Positions 3,414 to 61,692 of a stretch of DNA of 64,000 bases are shown in pieces. The notes under the pieces are model-generated. The model did not search any database. It saw nothing but the letters and a program-made list of their open reading frames with translations, and was not told where the DNA came from. Each line of letters starts with the position of its first letter. Position 1 is the first letter of the stretch. The stretch lies in NCBI GenBank assembly GCA_913061315.1, contig CAJXUC010000006.1, positions 9,078-73,077 of the forward strand, given 5' to 3'. Position numbers and translations under genes: made by a program. The stretch comes from an uncultured Gammaproteobacteria bacterium. Lineage in GTDB: Bacteria > Pseudomonadota > Gammaproteobacteria > GCA-001735895.

Positions 3414-4358
3414 CTACAACCAACCAGAGCGCATTAAATATAAAAATGTGGTTACCGTTAGCATAGCTAACAAAGTCGATATTACTATCGTACTAGAGGC
3501 CCTTTCTTGCCAAACGCCATATTGTTCAGCCAATACAAATACATTCGTCGCTGTGGGTAAAGTCGCCAACAATACAGCGCTATACAGCCATATGGGATTA
3601 AGTTCAGGTACTAGCCAAACCAATAAACCGTAAACTAAAAAAGGGTGCAGAATAAGTTTTATTGGAATGATGTAGCCAAGTGCCACAGGGACGCGTTTAA
3701 GTGGACGCAACGCTGCACTAATACCCATTGCAAATAGGGCACAAGGCCCTGCAGTTTTTGATAATAGATCGAATGTTTGGTCAGCAAACGCGGGTAATTT
3801 ATAAGAAAAAACCGATGCCAATACACCCGCTATTGTTGCAATAATAAAAGGATGAGTGAAGATTTTGACCATGATGTGCCTAACCAATGCGAATTTTGTT
3901 TGTTTGTTACTATTACCCAGCGCCATGAACAAAGGTGCAACAATAAAATGCATCGCGTTTTCAAAGCAAAAGATAAGAGCCACCGGAACTCCAGCGGCAG
4001 GCCCAAATGCAGCCAGCCCAAGCGGTATACCCATATAGCCAATATTGCCATAAGCGGCAGCAAGCCCCTGAATGGTGGCTTCAGACTGTTGACTTTTTCG
4101 CCACCTAGCAATCAGATATACCAAAAGAAATATAGCAAACGTGCTGCCTATGGAAATCAGAATAAAGCCAATTTGAGTAAACTGGCTGACCGGTGTTCTG
4201 GATAAAAGCTGATAAAACAGGGCTGGTAAAGCCACGTAGATAATATAAAAATTCATCCACCCCAAACCTTCAATGGGAAGTCGAGCCAATTTACCCGCAA
4301 CAAAACCAAGAACGATAATGGCAAATAGAGGCAATACGAGTTCAATAACAGCGAGCAT
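3414..4358 (-). CDS. AEC (auxin efflux carrier) family transporter
   Basis: 314 aa, about 10 TM helices, typical AEC N- and C-terminal repeats. Confidence 0.6.
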   Translation of the reverse strand: MLAVIELVLPLFAIIVLGFVAGKLARLPIEGLGWMNFYIIYVALPALFYQLLSRTPVSQFTQIGFILISIGSTFAIFLLVYLIARWRKSQQSEATIQGLAAAYGNIGYMGIPLGLAAFGPAAGVPVALIFCFENAMHFIVAPLFMALGNSNKQTKFALVRHIMVKIFTHPFIIATIAGVLASVFSYKLPAFADQTFDLLSKTAGPCALFAMGISAALRPLKRVPVALGYIIPIKLILHPFLVYGLLVWLVPELNPIWLYSAVLLATLPTATNVFVLAEQYGVWQERASSTIVISTLLAMLTVTTFLYLMRSGWL

Positions 4359-5839: not shown

Positions 5840-6730
5840 ATGACAATTTCTGAGTATGCTTCAAAACTAAGTTTACCGCAGGTTAATCCTGGCGTAACAA
5901 CAGTGCTGGAATACCTGATCATCAAGTTTCCTTATATTAATGCTCAGATTTGGCAGCAACGCATTGCAGATGGAAAAGTGCATTGGCACGACGGTTCATT
6001 GATAACAGACCAATCATTGTTTCAGGCACAACAACGAGTCTACTATTACAGAGAGGTTGAGAGTGAGCCCAGCATTCCTTTTAAGGAAACTATACTGTTT
6101 CAGGATGAACATATTTTAGTGGCTTATAAACCCCACTTTTTAACAGTAACTCCCGGTGGTGTTTATGTGAATGAGTGTTTACAAAACCGATTACGCCGCA
6201 GCACTGGCATTGAGGCTTTACAAGCATTACACCGTTTAGACAGAGTGACAGCTGGTTTAGTAATGTTCTCTACTAATTTGCATACTCGCAATCAGTATCA
6301 TGATTTGTTTCGAACCCGAAAAATACTCAAAACATATCAAGCCATTGCCAACATTAGTGGTGATGAAAAAATTATAGGCCAGACATGGGAAGTTAAAAAC
6401 CGTATTGTTCATTGCGAACCACGTTTTAGAATGTGTGTGGTCGAAGGCGAAGCCAATAGCCATTCTGTGATTCGATGCTTACAGCAATCAGATCATCAGG
6501 CATTGTTTGAATTGAATCCTGTGACGGGTAAAACTCACCAATTACGTGTGCACATGCAGACACTAGGCCATCCCATACTGAACGACAACTACTACCCAAA
6601 TTTAAAGGCACTATCAGCAGATGACTATTCAGCACCTTTGCAGTTACTGGCAATGAAGCTTCAATTTAATGATCCAGTCACTCAGCTACCAAGGCGTTTT
6701 AGTTATGAAAGTCACTTATCACTAAGCTAA
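5840..6730 (+). CDS. RluA-family pseudouridine synthase
   Basis: Catalytic motif HRLDRVTAGLVMF (HRLDxxTSG of RluA/TruC family); 296 aa. Confidence 0.7.
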   Translation: MTISEYASKLSLPQVNPGVTTVLEYLIIKFPYINAQIWQQRIADGKVHWHDGSLITDQSLFQAQQRVYYYREVESEPSIPFKETILFQDEHILVAYKPHFLTVTPGGVYVNECLQNRLRRSTGIEALQALHRLDRVTAGLVMFSTNLHTRNQYHDLFRTRKILKTYQAIANISGDEKIIGQTWEVKNRIVHCEPRFRMCVVEGEANSHSVIRCLQQSDHQALFELNPVTGKTHQLRVHMQTLGHPILNDNYYPNLKALSADDYSAPLQLLAMKLQFNDPVTQLPRRFSYESHLSLS

Positions 6731-6832
6731 GGCAGGGAGAGAGGGAGGCAGGCGTAAAAAATTTAATTTTTAAAAAAACATAAAGGCTAACGCATTGAAT
6801 AAGTAAACCAGAATTTATCCTAATGAAGTAAC

Positions 6833-7270
6833 TTAATGGCTTACCTTGTCCCAAATTAAGAACGCCAAAGTAATCGAACCATTGAGTGTAAGCAGCCAGA
6901 CGAATGCGCCGCTGTTCAATATCACTGTCAACCAAAAAACAGTACGGAATGATTGTTTCTTAGTCTTGTGCCGAAACGTTTGCTGCGCGATCATTGCACC
7001 AGGCCAACCACCCACTAATGCTAAAAGGTGCAGGGTACTTTCTTGCGTTCTCAACGCTCCAGCTTTGGCTGTCGATTTATCTAAAGCATACATAACGAAG
7101 GTCACTAAACTGGTAGCAACATATAGCACCAAAATTAGGGAGGATATTTTAGTTAGAATAACAGAGACGGTAACAATAATTAAAAAGCAAATGGCAATAA
7201 AAATAAGAAAAACAGAGGCGGTGAGTAATTTTGAAAACAGTATATTGTTATGGAATATTACCTTCTTCAT
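6833..7270 (-). CDS. DUF1294 membrane protein
   Basis: YALDKSTAKAGALRTQESTLHLLALVGGWPGAMIAQQTFRHKTKKQSFRTVFW matches the conserved DUF1294 core; probable start at the internal MKKVIF. Confidence 0.55.
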   Translation of the reverse strand: MKKVIFHNNILFSKLLTASVFLIFIAICFLIIVTVSVILTKISSLILVLYVATSLVTFVMYALDKSTAKAGALRTQESTLHLLALVGGWPGAMIAQQTFRHKTKKQSFRTVFWLTVILNSGAFVWLLTLNGSITLAFLIWDKVSH

Positions 7271-8134
7271 ATTAAGGATATTTATATGTAATTGAATATA
7301 TGTGGCATTCATTCTCACACGAAAATAAAGTTTCTACAGCATCTAATCTAAAGCGCATAGCATTGGAGCTATCTTTTCTGGCAATATAAATAGGACTCCT
7401 ATAGTTTTTGCAACACACCTTCACTTTAAAATCGTTAGTCTCAAATTCTTTAATATAATCTGGTCCGATAAACGTTAATTTCCTCAAATCAACTGGATTA
7501 TTAGTAACAAAAGCCTCCTTGTTCTGACGAATACTGAGGACAATGGGAAATAGAAATTTCTGAAAGATTCAATCGCATCTATAGCTGACCTTATTGCATA
7601 AACATTAACAACTAATCATCAGACAGCCATTTATTATTCATAAATACCATTAAGGGATTAGGAACATTGTTATCAATAGAATGAACGAACTTGACATTTT
7701 TTAAGACCCTATGGGCATTGATGAGGAACAAAAATACGATGTTTTAGCAACCCAAAACTACTTGGAAACACCTGTTAAAATCAAATCTATCACCAAGTCT
7801 TTGGTATTCCTGAAAAAAAAGTTGCAAAGAAGAATAGGACAATCTAAAAAAAATTTTATTTACAAAGCGAATTTTGACTAAGATGAGAACATACTAACCT
7901 AATGGATCAAAATTCAGCTAGGCTATTATTAACATTAGGGTCTTAGGGGATGTCTATTAGTAGTAAAAAGTTTCACACGCTCAAATTAACTATTCGTACT
8001 GTTTTCCAGTCTTTTCACACCCTTTTTTTGATACTAGTGAGATCCAAGTCAAACAATCTGTTCACCAATCCAACTCTAGTCAGATTATAATCAAAAAAAG
8101 AAAAAACATTAATTGACTCAATAGCGTTAAGGCA

Positions 8135-9700
8135 TCAGCCCTTTTTATCGTTATACTCGTTGCACAATGTCAAATAATATAACGCGGCAATATCACTAGG
8201 TACGCTCTTAACATATTTCTCAAAACGCCCTTTAGCAGAAGCATAAGATTTAACTTGAAAGTGTTTTACAGCGTCTTCGAAAAGTTCAATAGATTCATCA
8301 CTTACCCTATTTTTACCATCAGAATCAGTAGAAAAAATATCATAAAGCGTTACCGATTTAGCTTTTCCTTTTACCTTAACCTCTCCAATCAAACGATAAC
8401 GTAAGTCATCTTTTTGCTCCAAATTTTGTAACGCATACTCACTGATCAAGAACTGTGAACCAAAAATTTTTGTTTCGTTTTCTATACGTGCAGCTAAGTT
8501 CACAGCGTCGCTTATAACCGTGCCATCCATACGATTATCCTCACCAACTGTGCCTAGACGCAATTTACCACGGTGTACGCCCACGCCAATATTAAGATCG
8601 CTCGGTAAATTACTCACATTTTCAGTATTGTAACTTTTTAATACCTCAATCATTTGAAGACCTGCATTAACAGCATCATCAGTGTTATCAAATAAAGCCA
8701 TAATGCCATCACCAATATACTTATCGATAAAGCCATTATTGTGACGAATAATAGGCCCCATTACGCCCAAATAAGTATTAATAAATTTGAAACTTTCTTC
8801 AGGCGTCATGCCTTCAGATAATGTAGTAAATGAACGGATGTCAGAAAATAGAATAGTCATTTGCTTTTCGACATTATCACTTAACTCAACATCAATAATG
8901 CTTTGCTTATTGAGGTAGCTCAAAAATTCATGGGGTACGAAACGATTGTATGCCGTGTTCGTTAATGACAGCATGCGGATGGAAGTGCGCAGAGCTTGAA
9001 TAATTATATAAATAATCAACAATAAAATAATAAAACTGCTTACCATTGTAAAAAGTGTCATTAACCAGCCGTCTTGAGCAATATTATGAACTTGATTTAA
9101 TTCTATATTGACGACACGAGCCCCCCTAACATCTCCTACAGTCCAATCTTTTTTAGTGCTATTAGGATGACTGTTATGACAATTCACACAACTTTGAGCC
9201 ATGACTAAGGATTTGGAATAACGAAGTGTTAGCTGGTTGTTAATTGTTTCGTAGGCAATAAAGGGTAAAGTTTTATCATCTGAAAAGCGGAGATGACTTA
9301 AAGCACTGTGTTCATATTCATCTTTCGGACCTCCGTTTAACCGATTTTTGAAAGGAAAGTTACTATACAATCTAGTAGTCACACCACTTTCTTTTTCGGA
9401 AATTTTCTCAGCTAATTCAATACTAAAAGTGGCCGGCACCGGAATAGCGCCAGGTATATCTTTGTATTCAGCACTTACTACTATGCCTGCTATTTTTGCA
9501 CGCGTGACAACGTCTGTAGAGTATAAGCTATGAAATGTATTCAAAGCTATTAAGTACGAGTCTGCGTATTTCAATGAAAGTTCTTTATTGATACTTCTGG
9601 ATAAATACACCATGTTGCCAAAAATAGCCCCCCCACCAAAAATACATAAGATAAAAATGGTTATTAGTGGCCGTTTATGAATAAAATTTAAATATTTCAT
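8135..9700 (-). CDS. Class III adenylate/guanylate cyclase with N-terminal periplasmic sensor domain carrying a CXXCH c-type heme motif (DUF3365-like)
   Basis: TM1 - about 190 aa periplasmic domain with CVNCH - TM2 - cyclase homology domain (FSDIRSFTTLSE, YIGDGIMALF, GVHRGKLRLGTVG, NLAARIE). Confidence 0.75.
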   Translation of the reverse strand: MKYLNFIHKRPLITIFILCIFGGGAIFGNMVYLSRSINKELSLKYADSYLIALNTFHSLYSTDVVTRAKIAGIVVSAEYKDIPGAIPVPATFSIELAEKISEKESGVTTRLYSNFPFKNRLNGGPKDEYEHSALSHLRFSDDKTLPFIAYETINNQLTLRYSKSLVMAQSCVNCHNSHPNSTKKDWTVGDVRGARVVNIELNQVHNIAQDGWLMTLFTMVSSFIILLLIIYIIIQALRTSIRMLSLTNTAYNRFVPHEFLSYLNKQSIIDVELSDNVEKQMTILFSDIRSFTTLSEGMTPEESFKFINTYLGVMGPIIRHNNGFIDKYIGDGIMALFDNTDDAVNAGLQMIEVLKSYNTENVSNLPSDLNIGVGVHRGKLRLGTVGEDNRMDGTVISDAVNLAARIENETKIFGSQFLISEYALQNLEQKDDLRYRLIGEVKVKGKAKSVTLYDIFSTDSDGKNRVSDESIELFEDAVKHFQVKSYASAKGRFEKYVKSVPSDIAALYYLTLCNEYNDKKG

Positions 9701-10148
9701 TTTTAATCCCTAACAATAAAATATAGGTTATTACAGCTAACGGCTGTTATTAGTTTTTGGTACTTGAAATTCTTATTATGCAATGCGCTGATTTTTTCAC
9801 CTGCTAAAAAATCATCTCCACCACAGTCATCTAAAAAATACTTAAAAAAGTAGCCATTAAAAAAGTTCCTTCTGTATTTTCTTTCCATTTATATTATCTT
9901 ATTGATAATAATCTAAATGATTGCGATTTATTTTACGTCTGAGATCCACTAATTGAAGAGCGAAGCATAGGGGTTCCATGTGAACCGATTGCTATGAATA
10001 TGTTTATTAATGGACGGTAATGAGCTGGTAAACTGGGAGTTTTTTTGATTTTTTTTTGATAACGCCAGACAAGAAATCATTGGCGAAGAACAGTTTTTTT
10101 TTGCTTTGAAACTCCATTTTGAAACACTCCTTTTCGTCAGCAAGTATC

Positions 10149-10577
10149 TTACTGTAATATTTTAAATCGTAACAGACAATTTATTATAGTTGAAGGTTTT
10201 GTGTTGGTGGCCATAATTCTTTGAATTGTTAAACCCGGCTGTGTAAAGATCAATGCCGTATCATTAAAACAGATTGTCATTACTGTATTAATTGATAGTG
10301 AGAGTGAAAACTGAAATTTCAAGCCATTCTTGATAGTAATTTTTACCGTAGTGTAGAAATGACTTAATTTCACCTGACTGGTCTCTTTTTGATAGCCTAA
10401 CACATTTAAATAATTACCCTGACCATCGGCAAAAAGACTTTTAATTGATTCAAAATATTTAATTCGTGGTCGCGTGAAAAAAGTGCGTATTTTCTCAACA
10501 TAAGGGTTTGCAGCAAAATTAGCATCAGGGTCTCCCAAGATATAGCCAGACTTGTCTTTGACTTTCTCTGGTCCCAA
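10149..10577 (-). CDS. Hypothetical protein (TTG start; low-complexity C-terminus; possibly degraded)
   Basis: 142-aa ORF with no recognisable motif; immediately followed by a second 64-aa ORF (9949-10143) after a 5-nt gap, suggestive of a frameshifted remnant. Confidence 0.25.
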   Translation of the reverse strand: MGPEKVKDKSGYILGDPDANFAANPYVEKIRTFFTRPRIKYFESIKSLFADGQGNYLNVLGYQKETSQVKLSHFYTTVKITIKNGLKFQFSLSLSINTVMTICFNDTALIFTQPGLTIQRIMATNTKPSTIINCLLRFKILQ

Positions 10578-11027
10578 AATAAAAGTAGGCCACTTAAGGT
10601 GAGTACATTCTAGAAATAATATCGTTTGAAAGTATCTGAGTGGATTCCTACCAAGCCCTAAGCTATATTCAAATGCAGAATATAAAAAAAATAAATATTA
10701 CTTTACTGGTAACAATGAGGCCAATTACAAACATTAGCGTTACAAATTGTATAAATATTAGATATATTGAAAGCCAATTAATATTCCCTGGCTTACAAGA
10801 CATCGTCAACCGAGTTTTAGAACTCCAATTTACTCCAGGCCTTCAGAAACACTCATAAAGGCTTTATTAGTAAAAAATTGGGGGTTTTCATGACATTTTT
10901 AATACTGTTATATCTATTTATTTCTATGGTTATTTATGAAGCTATCGTCTGTCTCGTATTTTCTTCTTAACTGTTACGGCTTGGTCTACTTAATAAGTGC
11001 TTGAGCAGGTCAGAGCAGCAAAACTAC

Positions 11028-11699
11028 TTAGGTTTTTGCCCGATCTGAATATAACTCATCATTAGTTTCAGTCAAACGACCAGCCAAAAATTTTAACAGA
11101 ACAGCATAGGCTGGCAGAAATAGCAGTAGACTGATAATAAGTTTGAACGCGTAATCAACCAGTGCAATCTCTACCCAATTCTCAGCCATAAAAGCATCTG
11201 GGCTTTGATAAAAAGCCATGGAGAAAAACAAAAGCGTATCCAGCGCATTACCCAGTACGGTAGAAGCAGCCGGAGCAACCCACCAGCGCCGAGTGCGCCG
11301 AAGTCGATTGAAGACTTGCACATCCAGAAATTGCCCAAATACATAAGCAACGAAACTTGCCAATGCAATACGTCCCACAAAAAGATTAAATTCAGCCAAT
11401 TGGCTCAGACCTTGAAAAGCGCCTTCATAAAATAACACCGAAAGTACATAGGACAGAAATAAAGCCGGTATCATTGCACGCAGAATAATACCTCGTGCCA
11501 TTGGCGCACCAAAAATGCGTACCGTCAAATCTGTAGCGAGAAAAATAAATGGAAAACTAAAAGCCCCCCAAGTGGAATGGAAGCCAAACAAAGTAAATGG
11601 TAGTTGAACCAGATAATTACTAGCAGCAATAATCAGAAGATGACTTGCAACCAAAAAAGTGAGTGCTTTATTAGATTGAACTGTGGTGAAAACTTTCAT
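11028..11699 (-). CDS. yhhQ: Queuosine precursor (preQ0/preQ1) transporter, YhhQ/QPTR (DUF165) family
   Basis: Strong similarity to E. coli YhhQ from MKVFTTVQ (SNYLVQLP, GFHSTWGAFSFPFIFLATDLTVRIFGAP, RLRRTRRWW); true start is the second Met (11699), with the first ATG (11717) lying inside the riboswitch. Confidence 0.75.
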   Translation of the reverse strand: MKVFTTVQSNKALTFLVASHLLIIAASNYLVQLPFTLFGFHSTWGAFSFPFIFLATDLTVRIFGAPMARGIILRAMIPALFLSYVLSVLFYEGAFQGLSQLAEFNLFVGRIALASFVAYVFGQFLDVQVFNRLRRTRRWWVAPAASTVLGNALDTLLFFSMAFYQSPDAFMAENWVEIALVDYAFKLIISLLLFLPAYAVLLKFLAGRLTETNDELYSDRAKT

Positions 11700-11705
11700 A
11701 TGTAA

Positions 11706-11738
11706 CCTTTTTGTCATTGGGGGCGAGGGAACCCAAAT
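11706..11738 (-). promoter_or_regulatory. Candidate preQ1-I riboswitch in the yhhQ leader
   Basis: RNA 5'-UUGGG UUCCCUCGCC CCCAA UGACAAAAAGG-3': 5-bp P1, 10-nt loop starting UUC and ending in the ligand-reading C, A-rich tail running into the SD, which is the same architecture as the T. tengcongensis (CUGGG-UCGCAGUAAC-CCCAG-UUAACAAAACAAGG) and B. subtilis aptamers; loop CCU can pair with the SD AGG (P2). Confidence 0.45.
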
Positions 11739-12020
11739 TATAATAATATTAAGTGGCTTTAGTGATGCCGCGGGTGATTCTATTCTAAGTTATGATTTTG
11801 TAAAGCACAGAGTGATATTTGGATATTTTTTGCTCCATAAAAATTAAATAAAATAGGTATCTAGATCTTATATTCATTTTTTACACACTACTAATTGAAA
11901 TAGGTCTGAAAGAATTATTGCAACGTAACACATGAGGGCCAAACGCCAGCTTTGCAAAACTTAAACTGTTTTCTATTCTATGGGTCTATTATGTATGTAT
12001 TACATTGCTTCATCTAAAAA

Positions 12021-15127: not shown

Positions 15128-16321
15128 ATGATAAACATGAACAGACGTCAATTTATTCGCATTTTTGGACTCTCTACCGGCGCTATTGCATTAACCACTG
15201 GCATCACTGGCTGCGGTGACTTGAAATCGTCTTTTAGTTCTTCAGATGAATCAGATAATTATGGATGGAATGGGCCCACAGCAGATATTAAAGATATCCG
15301 CTTACAGGTCTTGGCTTATGCCATCCTGAGCCCAAACCCGCATAATAAACAGCCTTGGGCTATCAAGCTAACAGGGCCATTAAAATTTGAACTGTATGTG
15401 GATCAAGAGCGTTTATTACCCGCCACCGACCCCTATTTTAGACAAATACATATAGGCCAAGGTACCTTCTTAGAAACTGCATCTATTGCGGCATCTGGCT
15501 TAGGGCATGATGCAGAAATCACGCTTTTCCCTCAGGGTATCTATAGCAATACTCAAGTCCTCAATAAACCAGTAGCAAAGGTATCTTTGACCCCAAATGA
15601 GTCAGTAAAAACTAACCCTCTATTTGCTAACCTATTAAGTCGTCACTCTAATAAACGTGAGTATAGCGATCAGCCATTGACCCAAAATCAAGTGTCAGAA
15701 TTAATCCGTTTTAATACTGATAATAACCAAAATTCACTCACCTTAGTGGATTCTCCTGCCGCCAAAAAACAACTTGAGCAAGTCTTAACCAAAGCAATGC
15801 AAATAGAGGTGGGTAACAAAGGCAGGGATGAGGAAACCATTAAAATGTTCCGATTTAATCAAGCAGAGGTAGAGCAGTACCGTGATGGTTTCGGCACTGC
15901 ACAAGCTGGGCTATCGGGCTTAAAGCGATTATTGGTTGAAAACTTTATCCTGTCTCGTGAAAGTACCGAAAAAGATCCGACTGAATTCGGACAACAAGCA
16001 GTCTCCATGACCCAAAAAGTCGTTGAATCAACAGGTACATTTGCTTGGATCACAAGCGCTTCAAATAGTCGCATCGATCAGATCAATGTGGGTCGCGAGT
16101 ATTGCCGTATTAACCTTAAGACGAATTCGATGGGTCTAGCACAGCACCCGTTGAGCCAAATATTACAAGAATATGAAGACATGCTGCCAATGCAAGCGGC
16201 TTTTAAGGACTTCTTCAATATTAAAACAAGTGACACGGTACAAATGTTATTCCGATTAGGCACGGCAGAAATAACACAACATAGTCCTCGTCGTACTGTA
16301 ACGGATATTATTCAAGCCTAA
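15128..16321 (+). CDS. Tat-signal exported nitroreductase-superfamily (Acg-like) protein
   Basis: Twin-arginine signal MNRRQFIRIFGLSTGAIALTTGITGCG (lipobox-like Cys); size and composition resemble Tat-secreted nitroreductase-fold proteins; the functional call is tentative. Confidence 0.45.
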   Translation: MINMNRRQFIRIFGLSTGAIALTTGITGCGDLKSSFSSSDESDNYGWNGPTADIKDIRLQVLAYAILSPNPHNKQPWAIKLTGPLKFELYVDQERLLPATDPYFRQIHIGQGTFLETASIAASGLGHDAEITLFPQGIYSNTQVLNKPVAKVSLTPNESVKTNPLFANLLSRHSNKREYSDQPLTQNQVSELIRFNTDNNQNSLTLVDSPAAKKQLEQVLTKAMQIEVGNKGRDEETIKMFRFNQAEVEQYRDGFGTAQAGLSGLKRLLVENFILSRESTEKDPTEFGQQAVSMTQKVVESTGTFAWITSASNSRIDQINVGREYCRINLKTNSMGLAQHPLSQILQEYEDMLPMQAAFKDFFNIKTSDTVQMLFRLGTAEITQHSPRRTVTDIIQA

Positions 16322-16545: not shown

Positions 16546-17016
16546 CTACGCCAGTAAGCCATTTGAATATGATCCATTACTATAAGTAAGTACTATTGCT
16601 CTATTAGTAGTTTCTTCGTCCTTGAGACTGACATGCACCCAGCCTGAATTAGGCTCCCCCTTTCGGTAGCACTCTAAAATGACTTGGTCGAATTCTAAAT
16701 TTTGTTCAATCCAGACTGCAAGCTCATAGTTACTTATTCCGGCTATTTCGATATCAACAGCCTCTGCTTTACAGTGTTGTGATGAAGATGACCCATTGAT
16801 TTCTGAATTAAGCTCAGTGCTTCTATAACCACTATTAGGCCTAAAAGGCTTTCCATAATGTAACCGCACTGGCTCTAGTATTTCAGAACATAAACGCTGT
16901 AACTTTACTATTAAGTGATCGGGTGGTGAGTTATCAATATTTTTTCTTTCTGCTGTTTCTGACCTTATTAGCTCTCCAAAGGTAAAATGATCTGACAGTT
17001 TTTCATTCCTATCCAT
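16546..17016 (-). CDS. Peptidase M15 (D-Ala-D-Ala carboxypeptidase/endolysin-like) family metallohydrolase
   Basis: SGYRSTELNSEINGSSSSQHCKAEAVDI and GWVHVSLKD resemble the Zn-binding H/D/H region of M15 peptidases; 156 aa, no signal peptide. Confidence 0.55.
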   Translation of the reverse strand: MDRNEKLSDHFTFGELIRSETAERKNIDNSPPDHLIVKLQRLCSEILEPVRLHYGKPFRPNSGYRSTELNSEINGSSSSQHCKAEAVDIEIAGISNYELAVWIEQNLEFDQVILECYRKGEPNSGWVHVSLKDEETTNRAIVLTYSNGSYSNGLLA

Positions 17017-17461
17017 TTTTTATACCCCTTATTGTTCTTAGGTTTTGTTTTATTAGTTATCTATTCGATCAGCTAACTTTTAAATGTGCTGGTACTATCA
17101 TTTTTGCCTGCGGTTGCAATAACAAACCTAACTTGACCCAAGTTTTGCATCAAGATCAAAGCGAGTTAAAGTTTATTTAATATCAATTTCATGCAATTCA
17201 ACCTCTGATTTGTAAACTTACTTGATTAATCACGCTGATGATATAGACAGAAAGCATTAGAAATTGTCAGATGAGAACTACATTAAATGACGTCCTATCA
17301 GAAAAAATGTAAATTGCCTTTGCTAAGGAAGATGGATCAATGACGATTAAGGTGCGCGCTATCCTGTGCTGTTAAATCAACCAATAGCCCCAAGCAACCA
17401 TTAACGTGTTATTTATATACTGCCTGTGAGCAGTTAGATGGCAGAACAACTTGTCACTTAC

Positions 17462-18421
17462 CTAGGAAAGTCCCATAAAATACAAGGCCGTTGTTAGGCT
17501 GGTTTGATTAATTTGGTAGGGTGTTGCTTTACACGTTGCGGGCTTACCTTGGTAAGCAATCCCTAAACCCGCTAGCGTTATCATTGGGATGTCGTTTGCA
17601 CCATCGCCGATTGCACAGCACTCGACCGGGTCGATACCCATTTTGGCTGCGATCGACAACAACAATGCTCGTTTCGAATTTGCGTCAACTATTGGAGCCA
17701 ATACACCGCCGGTTAAGATTCCGTTATCGACCTCTAACCGATTACTGTGGACTTCATCAAAGCCTAGTCGCCGTGCAATGGGTCGGGCGATGGTATCGAA
17801 GCCACCACTGATCAAAACCGTATACAGTCCGGCTTGGCCTGCTTTTTGCACTAGCTGTTCGGCCCCTGGGTTTAAACGACAAGCATTTGCCATGTCGATA
17901 AATGCTTGCTCTGGTTGCCCTTTTAGTAATCCTACCCGTTGCCTTAATGAGGCATCAAAATCTATTTCACCTCGCATTGCCTGTTCGGTTATTGTTGCAA
18001 CCTGTTGACCAATGCCGACTGCTTCTGCCACTTCATCAAGTGTTTCTGCATCGACTATTGTTTTATCCATATCGCAAATAAGTAATTTTTTAGTACGCTG
18101 ACTAACAGGTTGAACCGCTATATCAACATTTACTAATTGACTATTCAGGGATTGAAAAATCTGCCACGCAGCTGAACTGGTGACGTTGAATTCTATATCA
18201 TGAGCCACGCCTATCATACGGCACCGATCGAGAACAATAGGCGGCCCTTTGTCCTCGATCAGTTGTTTCGCAACTTGCACCTGTGAGTCAAATCGTTTCA
18301 AGTCAAGATCAATCGACCCACAGAGCGTTATCACAAAACCCTGATGATCGTTCTGGTCGTCAGTAACCCAGGCGGGTGGTTTACTTAGTGTTTGAGATTT
18401 CTTCACTTGATAGGACATCAC
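17462..18421 (-). CDS. serB: Phosphoserine phosphatase
   Basis: HAD motif I LLICDMDKTIV, C-terminal GDGANDIPM; 319 aa with N-terminal ACT-like regulatory region. Confidence 0.8.
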   Translation of the reverse strand: MMSYQVKKSQTLSKPPAWVTDDQNDHQGFVITLCGSIDLDLKRFDSQVQVAKQLIEDKGPPIVLDRCRMIGVAHDIEFNVTSSAAWQIFQSLNSQLVNVDIAVQPVSQRTKKLLICDMDKTIVDAETLDEVAEAVGIGQQVATITEQAMRGEIDFDASLRQRVGLLKGQPEQAFIDMANACRLNPGAEQLVQKAGQAGLYTVLISGGFDTIARPIARRLGFDEVHSNRLEVDNGILTGGVLAPIVDANSKRALLLSIAAKMGIDPVECCAIGDGANDIPMITLAGLGIAYQGKPATCKATPYQINQTSLTTALYFMGLS

Positions 18422-18431
18422 GGGTCACAAA

Positions 18432-20066
18432 CTATAACGATGGGAAGTTAAGATACTTGACTGTATTGATATTAGCCAAGGCGCTTAATTTTTGCATTGC
18501 ATCGTGACTTGGCTGCGCTTCTATCTCGAGTAAGGCCATGGCATTGCCACCACTGGCCTCGCGCCCTAGATGCAGGTTGGCAATATTGATAAGGCTAGTA
18601 GCTGCAGATGTGCCGATATCACCAATGACACCCGGCGTATCTTGGTTGGTAATATAAAGCATGTGTTCTCCTAGTTGTGATTCCAATGGAATGCCTTTCA
18701 CGTCAATCACTCGAGGTCGATGTTGGATTAGAGTGCCACTAATGCTGTGAGTGTGCGCCTCTGTTTTGACGGCAACGGTAATACGACAGGGGTACTCATC
18801 CTTACCTTCACTTAATGCTTCTATTAAGTCGATATTACGTTGGGTTGCTACCTCACGTGCATTCACTGAATTGACAAAACTGCTGTGACGCTCGAGTAAC
18901 GATTGAACTACCTGCGTGGTTAATGGTGAAAGATTTAAACCATTGGCTTCGCCACCATAGGTGACGGTCAATGATTCGATTGGGTCATCAGTCAACTGGC
19001 CTATAAATGAACCCAAGCGTTGTGCAAGCTGAAGGTAGGGTTTCAACTGTTTGGCTTCCTCTGCACTTAAACTGGGTGCGTTTAACGCATTATTAATTGC
19101 ACCACCCAACAAGTAATCACTCATTTGCTGAGCCACTTGAATCGCTACCTTTTCTTGAGCCTCGACCGTAGAAGCCCCTAGGTGTGGCGTACAAATTATA
19201 TTCGGTAGGCCGAATAATGGATTATTTTTGGCGGGCTCTACTTCGTAAACATCGAGTGCGGCACCTTTTATATGGTTACTTTTTAAAGCCACCAGTAGGG
19301 CTAGTTCATCGACTAAACCACCCCGAGCACAATTGATTAACAGGCTACCACGCTTCATTTTGTTGATTGCCGAGGCACTGATAATATTTGCCGTTTCGGG
19401 TGTTTTAGGGACGTGTAATGAAATGATATCTGAAGTGCCCAAAAGTGTATCTAAGTCGACCTTTTGAACGCCTAACTTGTCTGCTCTTTCTTCAGTTAAG
19501 AATGGATCGTAAGCCTGAACTCGCAGCCCATAACCAATTGATTTTTTTGCGACTATCGAGCCGATGTTTCCAGCGCCAATAATACCCAACAATTTACCGG
19601 TCAGTTCCATGCCCATAAATTTAGACTTTTCCCACTTGCCTTCATGGGTTGACTGATTTGCCTGCGGAATATGGCGTGCCAGCGATAACATCATCGCCAT
19701 GGCATGTTCAGCAGTAGTAATGGCATTACCAAATGGTGTATTCATAACTACAACGCCACGTTTTGTACAAGCCGCTACATCGACGTTATCAACACCAATA
19801 CCTGCCCGTCCAACCACTTTCACATTGGACGCATACCCGAGTAGCTCTTCGGTTATCTGTGTTGAGGACCTGAGTGCAATGCCATCAAACTCTCCGACCA
19901 TATCAAACAGTTCTTGTTTCGATAATTTCCCTGGGGTTATTGCTTCAATGCCACGTTCCTCAAAGACTGCAAGGGCCAGGCTCGACATTGTGTCGGCTAT
20001 AAGTACTTTAGGTTTTACAATCGAAGTATGGTTCATTTTTTCACTCGTTATTTTTGCGTCAGTCAT
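18432..20066 (-). CDS. serA: D-3-phosphoglycerate dehydrogenase, type I (long form with ASB and ACT domains)
   Basis: NAD-binding GIIGAGNIGSIVAKK, catalytic domain ICTPHLGAST, 544 aa length typical of Mtb/Bacillus-type SerA. Confidence 0.85.
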   Translation of the reverse strand: MTDAKITSEKMNHTSIVKPKVLIADTMSSLALAVFEERGIEAITPGKLSKQELFDMVGEFDGIALRSSTQITEELLGYASNVKVVGRAGIGVDNVDVAACTKRGVVVMNTPFGNAITTAEHAMAMMLSLARHIPQANQSTHEGKWEKSKFMGMELTGKLLGIIGAGNIGSIVAKKSIGYGLRVQAYDPFLTEERADKLGVQKVDLDTLLGTSDIISLHVPKTPETANIISASAINKMKRGSLLINCARGGLVDELALLVALKSNHIKGAALDVYEVEPAKNNPLFGLPNIICTPHLGASTVEAQEKVAIQVAQQMSDYLLGGAINNALNAPSLSAEEAKQLKPYLQLAQRLGSFIGQLTDDPIESLTVTYGGEANGLNLSPLTTQVVQSLLERHSSFVNSVNAREVATQRNIDLIEALSEGKDEYPCRITVAVKTEAHTHSISGTLIQHRPRVIDVKGIPLESQLGEHMLYITNQDTPGVIGDIGTSAATSLINIANLHLGREASGGNAMALLEIEAQPSHDAMQKLSALANINTVKYLNFPSL

Positions 20067-20067
20067 T

Positions 20068-21252
20068 TCATGTCACCTTGTTTCGTTGTTTAAACCGATC
20101 AAAAGCCCAATCCATCCAAGGTGTTAAGGCCATTAGGTCGTCTGTTTCTATAGTTGCACCACCCCAAATCCGAAAGCCTGCAGGTGCACTGCGGTAATTG
20201 GCAATATCCAAGGCACAGTTTTCTTGTGCTAACCAGCTCAGCATTAAATTAATAGCTTGCTGTTGCTCCTCACTTTCGAGTTGATTAAATTCAGGGTCAA
20301 TAATGCGTAAACACATAGAAGAAGGCGAACGGGTCTCGGCGGACGTTGCCAACCAATCGATCCACGCTGTTTGCTGAACCCACTGATCTAACAGGTCAAA
20401 ATTTTGTTGCGTGCGCTTCCAAAGTGATTCAACACCGCCAATACGATCTGCCCAATCGAGGGCAGCATGTAAATCTTCGACCGCCAACATACTAGGCGTA
20501 TTGATAGTGGCACCCGAAAATAACCCTTCGATTAATTTTTGGTTTTTAGTGAGTTGAAATATTTTAGGTAATGATCTTGAAGGGGTATAACTTTCTAATC
20601 TTGCAATTGCCTTTGGACTCAGTGCCAGCATGCCATGGGCTCCTTCACTGCCCAGCACTTTTTGCCAAGACCAAGTAACGACGTCGAGTTTAGAAAAATC
20701 GATCGGCATGGCAAAAGCGGCAGAGGTTGCATCGCATAACACCAGACCATTACGATCGCTATCGAGCCAATCTAAATGCGGAACCCGCACGCCACTGGTT
20801 GTGCCGTTGTAAACCATAACAACATCGTGATCTGACTTGATTTGGGTGAGGTCTGGCAAGTCACCATAATCGGCTTTGTATACGTTCAATTCAGGCAAGC
20901 CGAGTGTTTCGAGGTCTTTTGCCCAATCGGCAGAAAAACTGTCCCATACCAATGCATCAACAGCACGGGCACCTAACATTGACCACATGGCCATTTCAAA
21001 TGCACCGGTATCAGAGCCAGGTACTATCGCAAGTTTCCAGTCATCGGGTAATTTAAGTAATTGATGTGAACGTAATATGGCGTCACTAAGACGCTGCTTG
21101 GGTTGTTTAGCGCGATGGCTTCGACCCAATTGTTCAAGGTTGAGATGTTTAATATCCCAACCCGGATATTTCTTACAGGGACCCGAAGAAAACCGTGCGT
21201 CTTGCGGGCGCAAGCTCGGTTTTTCGGGAAAGCCAATGGCTTTCTCGATCAT
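20068..21252 (-). CDS. serC: Phosphoserine aminotransferase, Mtb-type (SerC family 2); ORF track start 21369 is an over-extension
   Basis: ARFSSGPCKK near the N-terminus parallels M. tuberculosis SerC GRFGSGPSKV; GAGG RBS 7 nt upstream of the Met at 21252; 1-nt gap to serA. Confidence 0.7.
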   Translation of the reverse strand: MIEKAIGFPEKPSLRPQDARFSSGPCKKYPGWDIKHLNLEQLGRSHRAKQPKQRLSDAILRSHQLLKLPDDWKLAIVPGSDTGAFEMAMWSMLGARAVDALVWDSFSADWAKDLETLGLPELNVYKADYGDLPDLTQIKSDHDVVMVYNGTTSGVRVPHLDWLDSDRNGLVLCDATSAAFAMPIDFSKLDVVTWSWQKVLGSEGAHGMLALSPKAIARLESYTPSRSLPKIFQLTKNQKLIEGLFSGATINTPSMLAVEDLHAALDWADRIGGVESLWKRTQQNFDLLDQWVQQTAWIDWLATSAETRSPSSMCLRIIDPEFNQLESEEQQQAINLMLSWLAQENCALDIANYRSAPAGFRIWGGATIETDDLMALTPWMDWAFDRFKQRNKVT

Positions 21253-21684
21253 GATATAACCTCTAGTTATTCGGTGGTTTGCTCCACCAAGCATAATTAG
21301 GCTAACATAATCGTGGATAAGTCGTGCAGTATTTGTTAAACCTAAAGTGACTATGAATATAACCAACATTAGTAATGGAATGGATTATACGCAGAAAGTT
21401 GGGACGATTAACCCGAGTTTAAAGTTTGAACACATGCAAAACTGCAAGGGTCCAGATTTACTTCTGATAACCCATAATCGTTATGAAAACCCTACGTTTG
21501 TCGGTTCTAGATGACTTTGTTGAAGAAGCTTTGGTTTGTTCTAGGCTGATTTCTAATAGACGCAGATGAATCAGATTTAAAGTATATGTGTAAAAGGGGC
21601 ATACCTAACGATTGATACAAAACCATGCTGCCCTCAGCCTGGCTAATTTAGCTTTTCTAATATCCCCATTAACTAATTTAAGCA

Positions 21685-21903
21685 CTAAAAACTTTTAAGA
21701 TATAGCTGTTCCACTTTTTCTCTAGCCCAAGCTGTTTTGCGGAGAAATTTTAAACTTGATGAAATACTTGGATCACTATTAAAACACTTGATATCAATCA
21801 GATTACCCAATGACTCCCAGCCGTGTTTATCAACAAGCTGAGTCACTACTTCTTTTAGAGTGACTCCATGTAAGGGCTCTTTTGAAACTTTTTTATTGGT
21901 CAA
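21685..21903 (-). CDS. DUF2132 (VF530-like) small helical protein
   Basis: 72 aa; [20 protein letters not shown] conserved core. Confidence 0.45.
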
Positions 21904-22121
21904 CAGATTTACCTGTAATTGTCTTTGATTAGCAAGTTCATAATTGGTATGTTGTCATAAAAAACAAACTATACAATCGATAATTGAAAAGTGTATTTTT
22001 AATTGATGTGATAGCAATCTAATAATATGAAGTAATTTAACGATTTTTGTGATCAATATTTGGCGGACACCGATAGATAGATTAATATTAGGTTTACGTA
22101 GATAACCCAAAAACGGAAAAC

Positions 22122-22673
22122 ATGGCATCACTGCAAGATCAATTACTCAAAGCTGGCGTGATTAATAAGAATAAGGCTAAGAAAGTTAAAAATGACCAGC
22201 ATAAACAGGCCAAAGTGATTCGCAAGATGGGTGGAAAAACGGTCAATGAAGCGAAAACAACTGTTGTCAGTGAGCGGGCAAAGAAAAATGAACGTGATCG
22301 CGAATTAAACTTAAAGAAACAGCAAGAAGCCAATCAAAAGGCAGTTGTCGCTCAGATTAAACAATTGATAGACCTCAATAAAATAGCCGATAACAAAGGA
22401 GATATTCATTATCGCTTTGTTTATGAAAAAAAAGTTAAACACATTTACGTCACCAGCGAAATGCAAGATCACCTCAGTCGAGGACGACTAGCCATTGTGG
22501 CGCTATTAGGTAATGTGACTGAAAAATTTGAAATTGTGCCTGCCGGTATCGCTGAAAAAATTGCCCAACGGGATAGTGATTATATCGTTCAGTTAAATAT
22601 TAAAGAGTCGTCTGAAGAGATCGAAAATGATCCCTATGCTGATTATCAAATACCCGATGACTTAATGTGGTGA
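22122..22673 (+). CDS. DUF2058 (YaiL-like) protein
   Basis: MASLQDQLLKAGVINKNKAKKVKNDQHKQ Lys-rich N-terminus typical of YaiL. Confidence 0.55.
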   Translation: MASLQDQLLKAGVINKNKAKKVKNDQHKQAKVIRKMGGKTVNEAKTTVVSERAKKNERDRELNLKKQQEANQKAVVAQIKQLIDLNKIADNKGDIHYRFVYEKKVKHIYVTSEMQDHLSRGRLAIVALLGNVTEKFEIVPAGIAEKIAQRDSDYIVQLNIKESSEEIENDPYADYQIPDDLMW

Positions 22674-45076: not shown

Positions 45077-46501
<1,425 letters not shown>

Positions 46502-57185: not shown

Positions 57186-60100
57186 ATGAGTACAAACACC
57201 AAACTCAAAGGCCTTTACCATCCTAGTTTTGAAAAAGATAGTTGTGGTTTTGGTTTAATTGCCAACATCGACGACAAACCCAGCCACTGGCTCATAGAAA
57301 CATCGATAGCCGCCCTCGCTCGGCTCACTCATCGAGGTGCTGTGGCAGCCGATGGGAAATCTGGCGATGGCTGTGGCTTATTAATTAAAAAACCAGATTC
57401 GTTTCTTCGTCAAAAAGCAGCGGAACTTGGTATTAAATGTGATAAAGAATACGCCGTTGCAATGATCTTTCTCTCCCCTGATACTGAGGAAAAAACGATA
57501 TCTAAAGCTATTATCGAACAAAAAATAGCTGACCAAGGTTTAGATTTTGCTGGCTGGCGCGAAGTACCCACTGATTCTTCCGCCTGTGGCGAAGAATCCC
57601 TCAAATCTCAGCCTGCAATTTATCAAGCCTACATCAATGCAGCCCAACATCACACCAATGCTGAGTTTAACCGGTCGTTATATCTTGCACGTCGGGCTAT
57701 CGGTAAAGCACATGAGGCCCTAGAACAAAAAAGTATTAACGAACATTACTATGTGACGAGTATGTCATCGAGCGTCTTGTCTTATAAAGGACTCATTACG
57801 CCTGAAAATTTACCCATATTTTATCCAGACCTCAATGACGATTCGATGGAAAGTGCCATCTGTGTTTTCCACCAGCGATTTTCAACTAATACTTGGCCTC
57901 AATGGAAACTGGCTCAACCTTTTCGCTATTTGGCTCACAATGGCGAAATCAATACTATTCAAGGTAATCGGAACTGGGCCAATGCCCGCGCTTACAAATT
58001 TGATTCTGACTTACTGCCGGATGTCGACGCGATTAACCCACTAGTTAACATGTCCGGGTCAGACTCAAGCTCCATGGACAACATGCTCGACTTTCTTCTC
58101 ACTGGGGGTATGGATATTTTTCGCGCCATGCGCTTGTTAGTTCCACCAGCCTGGCAAAATGTAGATCATATGGATCCTGCACTTTCTGCTTTTTATGAAT
58201 ACAACTCAATGCATATGGAACCTTGGGATGGCCCCGCTGGCATCGTATTGACAGAGGGTCGTTATGCCTGTTGCGTTATGGACAGAAACGGCCTACGTCC
58301 AGCCCGCTGGGTAATGACTAAAGATCGTCATATTACGCTGGGTTCTGAAATTGGTATCTGGGACTACGCACCAGAGGATGTCATCGCTAAAGGTCGATTG
58401 AAGCCAGGTGAAATGATTGCCATTGACACCGAAACCAGTAAATTTTTATTATCAGCTGACATCGATAAAATGCTTCAGGAACGTAACCCCTATGAAATAT
58501 GGTTACGCAATGGTTTACAGCGTTTGACTGCCAACCCGGCTCATACCAATCTGTCTGCGTTAGCCATGAGCAAGGAAGTGCTTGCACGTTTAGAGAAACA
58601 ATTTCAAGTCAGCTACGAAGAGCGTGATCAAATACTCAAAGTATTGGCACAAGATTCCCAAGAAGCAACTGGTTCAATGGGTGACGACACACCGTTACCC
58701 GTTTTATCTAGGCACCATCGTTCGCTTTACGATAGTTTTCGTCAGCAGTTCGCACAGGTAACCAATCCGCCGATTGATCCGCTGCGTGAAAAGATCGTGA
58801 TGTCACTTGAAACCTGTATAGGTCGCGAACACAATTTGTTCAAAGAAGGACCTGAGCACGCGAATCGTTTAAAAACAAGTTCACCCATCTTATCCGAAAG
58901 GAAATATCTGGAGCTTTTATCAAAGCATAACGATGGCTACCCGAATGAAACAATTGATCTAAGTTATGATCCAGATGTAACCAACCTTAAACAAGCCATT
59001 AACGCTATTGCTGACCAAGCAGAACGAGCATCTCGACGGGGTATTGTTGTGCTCATATTAAGTGACAAAAATGTTCCAAAAAACCGATTGCCGGTACACG
59101 CTGCACTCGCCACTGGGGCCGTTCATCATAGGCTCTGTCATACGGGTGGCCGTTGCGACACCAATATCATTATTGAGACAGGCACCGCCAGAGACTCACA
59201 TCACATGGCCGTCTTAATCGGCTATGGTGCGACCGCAATCTATCCATACTTAGCGTATGCAAGCATCGTCGGCATGACCCGTAACGGTGAGCTACCCGAT
59301 TTGCAATGCCCCAATACTGGCACGAATTACCGCCGGGGTATCAACAAAGGTCTTTACAAAATCATATCAAAAATGGGAATTTCCACTATCTCTAGCTATC
59401 GTGGCGCTCAACTCTTCGAGATAGTTGGCATACACCACGAAGTTGTTGATATTTGTTTTAGAGGGACCATTTCACGCATTGAAGGCATTAAATTTGAAGA
59501 CATCGAGAATGACACAAAGGCCCTCAGTAAACTGGCCTGGAATCCACGTAAACTAGCCAGCCAAGGCGGGTTACTCAAATATGTGCATGATGGTGAATAC
59601 CACGCCTACAATCCAGACGTAGTCAATACACTGCAAAATGCCGTCAACGATGGTAATTACGATGACTGGAAGATCTATGCCAATACAGTCAACAATCGTA
59701 CCGCCACCGCACTCAGAGATTTACTCAAGTTACGACCACAAACGCCGATTGATCTTGAAAAGGTCGAGCCGTTAGAAGCCATACTGAATCGATTTGATTC
59801 TGCCGGTATGTCCCTTGGGGCGTTGTCACCCGAAGCCCATGAAACACTGGCACAAGCAATGAATCAATTGGGTGGGCGGTCGAATTCTGGCGAAGGTGGC
59901 GAGGACCCCGCCCGGTTTAAAGACGATCGAAACTCTAAAATCAAACAAATCGCATCGGGTCGATTTGGCGTCACACCTCATTACCTAGTCAACGCAGAAG
60001 TGCTTCAAATTAAAGTAGCACAAGGGGCAAAACCTGGCGAGGGCGGTCAGCTACCTGGCGATAAAGTAACCAAACTCATTGCCGAGTTAAGAAACTCAAA

Positions 60101-61670
60101 ACCAGGTATCACCCTGATATCACCGCCACCACATCATGATATCTATTCGATAGAAGATTTAGCCCAGCTGATCTTCGACTTGAAGCAAGTCAACCCGAAG
60201 GCACTCGTCTCAGTCAAGCTTGTTTCAGAAGCGGGTGTCGGAACCATCGCCGCGGGTGTTGCCAAATCCTATGCAGACTTAATTACCATCGCAGGCTATG
60301 ACGGTGGCACCGGAGCCAGTCCATTAACATCGGTCAAGTATGCTGGGGCACCGTGGGAGCTAGGTCTCACTGAAACACACCAAGTTTTGCGCGCCAATAA
60401 AATGCGTGACCGAGTTCGAGTACAAACCGACGGTGGTTTAAAAACCGGATTAGACGTTATCAAAGCAGCCATATTAGGTGCAGAAAGCTTTGGTTTTGGC
60501 ACAGGGCCCATGGTTGCCATGGGCTGTAAATACCTTCGTATTTGCCATCTCAACAATTGTGCTACCGGTGTGGCTACCCAAAATGTAACGTTAAGAAAGG
60601 TACACTTTGTTGGTAACGTTGAAAAAGTTAAAAACTACTTCCGGTTTATTGCGAGAGATGTACGAGAAATTATGGCGACTATTGGTATTGCCAAAATGGA
60701 AGATCTTATCGGCCGGACTGATTTGCTCGAAGCCATCGAAGGGACTACGCCAAGCCAAAGGAACCTAAATCTTGAACCACTCTTGTTTGATGGTGGCCTC
60801 GATCCTAACTTGCCGCAGTTTTGCACTCAAGCAAGCAACCAGCCTTTTGATAAAGGCGAATTAGCCGAACAGATGGTGATCGATTGTTTACCCACAATCC
60901 AAAAAGGCAGCGGGGGTGAATTTCATTACAAGGTGAAGAATATTCATCGATCTATTGGCGCCCGATTATCCGGTGAGATCGCCAGAGTGCATGGCAATCA
61001 CGGCATGTCAGATAATCCTATTCACTTAAATTTATCAGGTTCAGCCGGTCAAAGCTTTGGCGTTTGGAATGCCGGTGGACTCAACATGACACTCGAAGGT
61101 GATGCCAACGATTATGTTGGTAAAGGCATGGCGGGAGGCAAACTTGTTATTGCTCCACCCAAAAACAGTCACTTCAAAACGCAAGACTCAACCATCATTG
61201 GTAACACCTGCTTATACGGCGCAACGGGTGGCAAACTCCTTGCGGCAGGCTTAGCAGGAGAACGTTTTGCTGTCAGAAACTCAGGTGCTCACGCCATGGT
61301 CGAAGGTATTGGTGATCATGGCTGCGAATACATGACCGGGGGTATCGTGACTATTCTAGGCAATACTGGCCTCAATTTTGGTGCAGGTATGACAGGGGGA
61401 ATCGCTTATGTGCTTGATCTTGACCGAAACTTTATTGATCGAGTGAACAAAGAACTTATTGATATTCATCGTATTACTGACGAAAGCATGGAGAGTCATG
61501 GCGCCTACTTGGATGAAGCTATTCGAGAGTATGTTGCCGAAACAGGTAGTGAATGGGGCCAATATATACTCGAAAACTTCAATCACTTTAAGCGCAAAAT
61601 CTGGATGGTAAAACCAAAAGCGGCTGAATTTGATTCGTTGTCAGTTACGTTACAAAAAAATGCTAGCTAA
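57186..61670 (+). CDS. gltB: Glutamate synthase large (alpha) subunit
   Basis: N-terminal amidotransferase Cys (DSCGFG), FMN/3Fe-4S and GXGXG C-terminal domains; 1494 aa. Confidence 0.95.
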
Positions 61671-61692
61671 ATAAAGGATCTCACTTGAGCTA

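Follow-up and report, generated by a model that had tools for sequence, protein, structure and literature searches.

A conserved two-hairpin leader RNA before a clustered serC-serA-serB operon in uncultured marine Gammaproteobacteria

We describe a compact operon of the serine biosynthesis genes serC, serA and serB, together with the small leader RNA that precedes it, in a 64,000-nucleotide (nt) stretch of DNA (hereafter the window) from an uncultured Gammaproteobacteria bacterium (GenBank assembly GCA_913061315.1, contig CAJXUC010000006.1, positions 9,078 to 73,077). Both the biochemistry and the arrangement of the operon are routine; what is new is the leader, a conserved two-hairpin element resembling the serC motif of Alphaproteobacteria. 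Probably the operon is the usual arrangement in a large clade of uncultured marine Gammaproteobacteria, inherited vertically there, and is controlled as a unit through this leader. The three genes are arranged head to tail on the minus strand in the order serC (20068-21252, phosphoserine aminotransferase of the TIGR01365/NF002841 subfamily, 394 aa), serA (18432-20066, type I or long D-3-phosphoglycerate dehydrogenase with ASB and ACT domains, 544 aa) and serB (17462-18421, phosphoserine phosphatase with an ACT-like and a HAD domain, 319 aa from a GTG start), separated by gaps of 1 and 10 nt. Genes, order and gaps had been given in this way by a first-pass annotation of the window, and the open reading frame (ORF) list and the sequence agree with it.

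The leader was found by aligning the sequences 5' of serC in the gammaproteobacterial clade, where it is nearly invariant and ends 3 nt before the start codon. In the window it occupies the approximately 42 nt directly before the serC ATG (21253-21294, minus strand) and reads GCUUGGUGGAGCAAACCACCGAAUAACUAGAGGUUAUAUC-AUG (21294-21253). It comprises two hairpins, P1 (21288-21284 / 21277-21273, minus strand), which pairs GGUGG with CCACC around the loop AGCAAA, and P2 (21270-21265 / 21261-21256, minus strand), which pairs AUAACU with GGUUAU around the loop AGA. P2 holds the Shine-Dalgarno sequence of serC, AGAGG (21260-21264, minus strand), in its loop and 3' arm, at a distance of 7 nt from the ATG; positions A50, G51, A52 and G53 of this sequence are invariant (alignment A2). 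The same holds for four P1-loop nucleotides (A31, C33, A34 and A35) and for the GC in columns 22-23 of a GCCU-like 5' flank, and these positions are retained across lineages whose SerC proteins are only 58-65% identical.

Pairing is kept in 99% of alignment cells across 19 aligned loci, with compensatory changes at 7 of the 11 pairs. The observed pairing score was reached by none of 500 shuffles, no slid register came close, and RNAalifold independently predicts the identical two-hairpin structure. A further 64 distinct leaders came from metagenome loci retrieved by a fixed leader-motif pattern, so that part of every sequence is set by the search itself; the P1 partners left free by the pattern pair in 64/64 of them (G-C/U-A versus A-U/C-G) and the free outer pair of P2 is kept in 59/64, in five pair types. 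The P2 loop is AGA, 3 nt long, in all 19 aligned and all 64 metagenome sequences. Judged by this covariation, the leader folds as a two-hairpin RNA. The same inverted repeats could be read as the DNA-binding site (operator) of a dimeric transcription factor rather than as RNA structure, given that they lie directly 3' of the putative -10 element, a common place for repressor binding, and that the stem sequences are highly conserved. However, U-G pairs are found on the sense strand only (P2.6 is U-G in 55/64, with others at P2.5 and P2.1) and correspond to C-A mismatches on the other strand, the stems swap compensatorily while the loops stay fixed, unlike a sequence-specific operator, and the Shine-Dalgarno sequence lies at the centre of the second repeat. 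The frequency of U-G pairs therefore favours RNA structure, and we regard a DNA operator as improbable. A leader peptide, a T-box and a glycine riboswitch were also considered and rejected, there being no room for them in approximately 42 nt and no matches in Rfam.

A covariance model built from the leader alignment (R1, whose E-values are rough) has a single match in the window, at 21250-21294 with 67.3 bits, and its matches lie only directly 5' of serC in the gammaproteobacterial clade, at 57-72 bits. The serC gene starts 4-6 nt after the leader pattern in 56/64 metagenome occurrences with enough sequence, and leader occurrences away from an intact serC are decayed or duplicated remnants. 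Orphan remnants without serC are present in loci L108, L118, L140, L147 and L160. Elsewhere, an intact promoter and leader are followed by a truncated or decayed serC (L140, 7190-7566; L149, 646-940; L166, 2440-2730; L165, 3922-4175), with serA still 3' of the decayed gene in L149 and L165. These loci look like pseudogenisation with retention of the leader, or like assembly artefacts, and none of the orphan and decayed-serC occurrences points to another regulated gene. Second leader copies in L112 and L128 were considered as evidence of a wider regulon and rejected, the additional copy in L112 consisting of a second promoter and leader with a 5' stub of serC, beside an inserted gene. In that locus (3465-3560 and 5866-5904; L128 also has two copies) the duplication takes in the promoter, the leader and the first ~15 codons of serC, and the duplicates flank an insertion of ~2.3 kb with a TPR/sulfotransferase-like gene on the other strand.

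Upstream of the leader, a candidate extended -10 element, TGtTAGCCT (21299-21307, minus strand), ends 10 nt before P1. A TAnnnT element is present ~10 nt before P1 in all aligned relatives, several of which also have a TTGnCA-like -35, and given this position the mRNA probably begins with the leader; a consensus promoter scan did not list the candidate element. Promoter- and terminator-like sites inside the operon are at or below chance level by consensus scan. Since a conserved -10-like element and leader precede serC in all relatives, a single transcription unit under one promoter, as proposed in the first-pass annotation, is plausible. The genes have the usual marks of an operon, sharing one strand, very short gaps and an order conserved across genomes. 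At the serC-serA junction (20064-20079, minus strand), the sequence AAGGTG (20079-20074), placed 7 nt 5' of the serA start codon, is followed by the serC stop codon TGA (20070-20068), one base and the serA ATG (20066-20064); the 1-nt spacing is also found in L001, the syntenic relative described below, and in several more distant relatives the two genes overlap by 4 nt. At the serA-serB junction, 10 nt separate the serA TAG from the GTG and 13 nt separate it from an ATG at 18418, an alternative serB start 3 nt after the GTG that yields 318 aa and from which close SerB homologues, also of 318 aa, are annotated. The serC ORF in full spans 20068-21369, and the length of SerC homologues (391-399 aa) together with the conserved leader, which ends at the ATG, places the start at 21252, giving the 394 aa annotated previously. 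The same order of genes for three consecutive pathway steps recurs in dozens of independent contigs and is thus not due to chance. No paralogues of serC, serA or serB were found elsewhere within the 64-kb window, and the operon is predicted to cover every step of the phosphorylated pathway that leads from 3-phosphoglycerate to serine.

The identities of SerC, SerA and SerB were established using curated NCBIfam models with their cut-offs. SerC scores above the cut-offs of NF002841 (578 bits, cut-off 477) and TIGR01365 (522 bits, cut-off 448), and falls below those of the classical TIGR01364 (65 bits, cut-off 444) and the E. coli-type NF003764 (PRK05355; 60 bits, cut-off 253), in agreement with the earlier view that this is not the classic ~360-aa enzyme. 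Its K198, in the motif SWQKVLG, is invariant (alignment A1). The same annotation had likened the protein to the M. tuberculosis/archaeal family. The mycobacterial label is imprecise, as SerC scores only 103 bits against the 401.65-bit cut-off of TIGR01366 and M. tuberculosis 2FYF is merely the nearest solved structure, a distant one at 90 bits. On these scores we assign SerC to the Methanosarcina/alphaproteobacterial type TIGR01365/NF002841 and not to the mycobacterial TIGR01366 type.

SerA was likewise recognized beforehand as the long type I form of 544 aa, and the models assign it accordingly: it matches TIGR01327 with 615 bits (cut-off 454; positions 1-524 of 525 aligned), scores below the E. 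coli-type model NF008759 (276 bits, cut-off 404) and contains the Pfam domains PF00389, PF02826 and PF19304, the last being the intervening (ASB) domain at residues 340-457 (E=8e-30). Pfam reported no ACT domain in SerA at E<=1e-3. The protein aligns with M. tuberculosis phosphoglycerate dehydrogenase 1YGY over residues 18-530 (E=3e-94), and the alignment with the mycobacterial ACT domain reaches residue 517. Like this type I enzyme (1YGY/3DC2), SerA is predicted to have four domains (substrate-binding, NAD-binding, ASB and ACT) and keeps the DxPG motif of the ACT domain, although the similarity is only moderate. Equivalents of Asp463 and Asn481 are kept and that of Tyr461 is replaced by Asn; in the M. 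tuberculosis enzyme these three are serine-contact residues. Serine feedback through the ACT domain of SerA is plausible by inference from this homology.

SerB matches TIGR00338 with 218 bits (cut-off 144), and its DxDxT motif (D117, D119, T121) and GDGAND (272-277) are invariant (alignment A5). Sequence searches returned no match for the N-terminal ~105 residues. In an AlphaFold2 model (pLDDT 92.7), residues 26-105 form a beta-alpha-beta-beta-alpha-beta unit, and the model superposes over its full length on SerB of Brucella melitensis 7QPL (TM 0.79/0.85) and also on Salmonella 4EZE. The N-terminal region is thus predicted by the model to be an ACT-like regulatory domain as in long SerBs. The Brucella protein has the same combination of an N-terminal ACT-like domain and a HAD phosphatase, at 36% identity, and Salmonella 4EZE and Vibrio 3N28 are likewise phosphoserine phosphatases with one ACT domain, whereas SerB2 of Mycobacterium has two.

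The first-pass annotation had offered two readings of this arrangement, a horizontally acquired complete serine module or an uncommon lineage-specific organization. Recent acquisition from Alphaproteobacteria, Firmicutes, Actinobacteria or Archaea would account for enzyme types unlike those of enterics, Vibrio and Pseudomonas, for the nearest solved SerB structure coming from Brucella, and for the fact that serC-serA of these types is the alphaproteobacterial norm. The composition of the genes speaks against it, and the comparison with flanking genes that had been suggested gave no sign of transfer: GC content at third codon positions (GC3) is 0.41-0.42 in serC, serA and serB (window mean 0.373, standard deviation 0.030), which equals that of gltB, coxA and sulP, and the codon-usage distance of the operon genes is typical for genes of their length. 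The operon is flanked by genes for a peptidase M15, VF530, DUF2058, NUDIX, EamA, Usp and SulP, with no mobile-element genes among them. The chromosomal context is shared with L001 (SerC 88%, SerA 90%, SerB 75% identity to the window), which has ten consecutive syntenic genes in common with the window at 75-97% amino-acid identity. This contig, JBLHID010000103.1, was deposited as part of a ‘Polaribacter sp.’ metagenome-assembled genome (MAG), and on account of its gammaproteobacterial synteny it is almost certainly misbinned. All three genes are also present in L125, at 97%, 98% and 90% identity for SerC, SerA and SerB, and in L175.

SerC and SerA gave congruent neighbour-joining trees, and in both the window falls inside a clade of Gammaproteobacteria, Granulosicoccaceae and Thiotrichaceae MAGs, apart from the alphaproteobacterial sequences. 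The split between the two classes and the inner splits were recovered in 200/200 bootstraps of a concatenated alignment. Besides generic ‘Proteobacteria’ or unclassified labels and the misbinned ‘Polaribacter’, the closest named homologues of SerC and SerB belong to gammaproteobacterial MAGs, and the fall-off of their identity across relatives parallels that of DnaG, whose named relatives are all ‘Gammaproteobacteria bacterium’ MAGs from marine data. In the 33 loci where serC, serA and serB are all present, the three proteins rise and fall together in their identity to the window (Spearman rho 0.85-0.94), as would be expected of genes inherited as a unit. Taken together, the ordinary composition, the synteny with L001, the congruent and supported trees and the co-varying identities lead us to reject a recent transfer, which has very little probability left, and the lineage-specific organization is the correct reading of the two.

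Wider sampling places the arrangement in context. The serA gene follows serC in 53/80 genome loci, including most Alphaproteobacteria, for which serC-serA is the usual operon, and in 37/37 informative metagenome loci; among metagenome loci of the gammaproteobacterial clade that are informative for the third gene, serB follows serA in 19/24. The third gene is serB in L001, L003, L005, L008-L012 and the contigs carrying P0005 and P0084. In L002, L083 and L084 a short-chain dehydrogenase gene takes its place after serA. The finding that the first-pass annotation had said would indicate vertical inheritance, namely close relatives universally sharing the operon with proteins branching inside Gammaproteobacteria, was therefore largely obtained, the exception being serB, which is not universally attached. 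In E. coli, serC-aroA, serA and serB are at separate loci, SerA has 410 aa and SerC belongs to TIGR01364. The same three reactions are encoded there by dispersed genes with a short SerA, and here by clustered genes with a long SerA and a SerC of a different subfamily.

An older event concerns only the origin of the operon and is compatible with vertical inheritance within the clade. Leader, serC and serA may have been transferred en bloc between alpha- and gammaproteobacterial ancestors, with serB recruited later, given that gene order, enzyme subfamilies and the position of a two-hairpin, Shine-Dalgarno-sequestering leader are common to both classes and that well-studied Gammaproteobacteria use other forms of SerC and SerA. 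In two MAGs labelled Alphaproteobacteria, L015 and L020, a gamma-type leader precedes serC-serA-serB, and these loci are sister to the gammaproteobacterial clade, which also fits such a transfer; their SerB is short (212-215 aa) and has no N-terminal ACT-like domain. On the other hand, neither the event nor its direction can be inferred from unrooted neighbour-joining trees of 80 loci, ancestral presence in Proteobacteria with replacement in enterics fits equally well, and the two leader types are not detectably homologous by covariance models. We therefore hold an ancient transfer to be possible but less likely than its absence. In L069, a Pelagibacterales MAG, serC, serA and serB also stand in a row; according to a recent survey of 135 complete Pelagibacter genomes, every one of them lacks the phosphorylated serine pathway or has it only in part.

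The leader invites comparison with the alphaproteobacterial serC element (RF00517), which has two stems, is preceded directly by a promoter and stands before serC-serA (Corbino et al. 2005, PMC1273637). Its ribosome-binding site lies in the last hairpin, with the start codon no more than 11 nt downstream (PMC1273637). In the alphaproteobacterial loci that we fetched, RF00517 occupies the same position directly before serC. Both elements thus lie between a promoter and the start of a serC of the same subfamily, followed by a long-form serA, and both consist of hairpins of 5-6 bp with a 6-nt first loop and a 2-3-nt linker, carry the Shine-Dalgarno sequence in the final hairpin (loop and 3' arm), close that hairpin with C-G and U-G pairs (CU...GG) and have the start codon within a few nucleotides, the ATG following 3 nt after the hairpin in Gammaproteobacteria. 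By eye, both also have a 5' flank resembling GGGCC, the dinucleotide CA within the P1 loop and a P2 of the form xUAxCU...GGxUAx. They differ in the P1 loop (AGCAAA in the gammaproteobacterial leader, CCCAAC in the alphaproteobacterial element), the P2 loop (an AGA triloop against a GNRA tetraloop) and the length of P1 (5 against 6 bp), and the gammaproteobacterial operon usually has serB appended. In the alphaproteobacterial locus L040 the alpha-type P2 (GCUUCUGGAAGGGAGC) is kept and the first hairpin is different, and in L018, also from Alphaproteobacteria, neither leader type is found 5' of serC; from these patterns the first hairpin seems more variable than the second across the wider family. 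An updated serC motif was reportedly published by Greenlee and colleagues in 2018, possibly with gammaproteobacterial representatives.

The leader appears to work like the serC motif without demonstrable membership of RF00517, possibly as a new variant or a convergent analogue. We put forward only tentatively that it is a previously undescribed gammaproteobacterial counterpart of this orphan candidate, either a diverged homologue or of independent origin, which answers the same signal; that signal would be a metabolite or an RNA-binding protein reporting serine or one-carbon status.

Several observations weigh against these readings of leader and operon. An Rfam scan of the whole window at gathering thresholds matched no family, RF00517 (35 bits) included, and RF00517 was not found in gammaproteobacterial loci; even at E<=10 it has no match in 16900-22200, where the only Rfam match is a chance-level one to an Enterococcus sRNA (Ref64) at 17245-17321 (E=2.1), and no family at all matches in the 86 nt around the leader. 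Conversely, R1 run with filters off gave no match at the leader positions of six alphaproteobacterial loci with an alpha-type leader (recognized as RF00517 by cmscan in five and by sequence pattern only in L028). As neither model detects the other type, homology of the two leaders is not demonstrable. Serine, threonine and pyridoxal phosphate (PLP)-related compounds did not bind the alphaproteobacterial element (PMC1273637), which has been an orphan riboswitch candidate since 2005, with no ligand or protein partner known after ~20 years. P2 has a predicted stability of -2.2 kcal/mol at 37 C and of -5 to -6.5 kcal/mol at 4-15 C, and, weak as it is at 37 C, may by itself repress little. The promoter, the transcription start and the co-transcription of serB are inferred from sequence, and a consensus scan found no canonical terminator 3' of serB. 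With respect to descent, serB is not attached in L002, L007, L014, L016 and L083, some of them near relatives, and the trees are unrooted neighbour-joining trees of 80 loci whose MAG taxon labels are coarse and sometimes wrong.

The weakness of P2, the small size of the element and the two decades without a ligand for the analogous alphaproteobacterial motif are also what would be expected if the leader were a real RNA but no sensor, with P1 serving as a stabilizing 5' hairpin and P2 as a constitutive ribosome-binding context for fixed expression. Set against this, loop and flank nucleotides that are invariant among organisms whose SerC proteins are only 58-65% identical represent more constraint than stability needs, and we consider a purely structural role unlikely.

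Under the preferred reading of a vertically inherited, leader-controlled unit, the operon would have been passed down in the gammaproteobacterial clade with alphaproteobacterial-type enzymes and a serC-serA core, to which serB was appended in most members. Transcription would start at the promoter whose -10 element lies ~10 nt 5' of the leader. Initiation of serC translation would then be gated by opening or stabilizing the weak P2, presumably by a factor that recognizes the invariant P1 loop AGCAAA and its flanks. Translation of serA and serB would follow that of serC, a coupling suggested by junctions of only 1 and 10 nt. A second layer of control, proposed by homology, would be allosteric regulation, probably via the ACT domain of SerA and perhaps with participation of the ACT-like domain of SerB. 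Of the two, the RNA leader is the likelier control point.

The remainder of the window is consistent with its assignment to Gammaproteobacteria. The ponA-pilMNOPQ-aroKB-gltB order is typical of this class, and the window, in which mrcA (PBP1A), pilM, pilQ, aroB and gltB occur in this order and coxAB and dnaG are also present, matches it for mrcA (ponA), pilM, pilQ, aroB and gltB, the members that were scanned for. A gltD-family small-subunit gene is located 11 kb 5' of gltB, with mrcA, the pil genes and aroB between them (45080-46501, 57186-63411), and dnaG directly follows gltB. The 445-nt gap 3' of serB (17017-17461) has no ORF of more than 28 aa and is 71% conserved in L175. On the other side of the operon, ~385 nt of the minus strand between the VF530 gene and the serC promoter (21300-21684) are without a convincing ORF; this spacer is 78% conserved in L125 and 68% in L175, and is missing in L001, where the spacer is ~100 nt. 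A 397-aa protein encoded at 15128-16321 on the plus strand has a twin-arginine-like signal (RRQFIR) and no Pfam match at E<=1e-5. Positions 6000-12000 have a lower GC content (0.35-0.37 versus ~0.42) and include an ORF (8135-9700, 521 aa) with no NCBIfam match at E<=1e-10; this stretch may be an accessory island.

The operon corrects the impression, gained from E. coli, Vibrio and Pseudomonas, that serine genes are dispersed in Gammaproteobacteria. Its leader represents a second, sequence-divergent class of leader before an orthologous operon in abundant marine bacteria, and supplies an independent set of conserved and covarying positions for the design of binding and reporter experiments. It can join RNA family libraries and so improve the annotation of 5' untranslated regions in marine metagenomes. 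If the leader is indeed the counterpart of the alphaproteobacterial serC motif, comparison of the two types would define a minimal recognition core from the few features that they have in common (the GGGCC-like 5' flank, the CA of the P1 loop and the CU...GG closure) and would point to the ligand.

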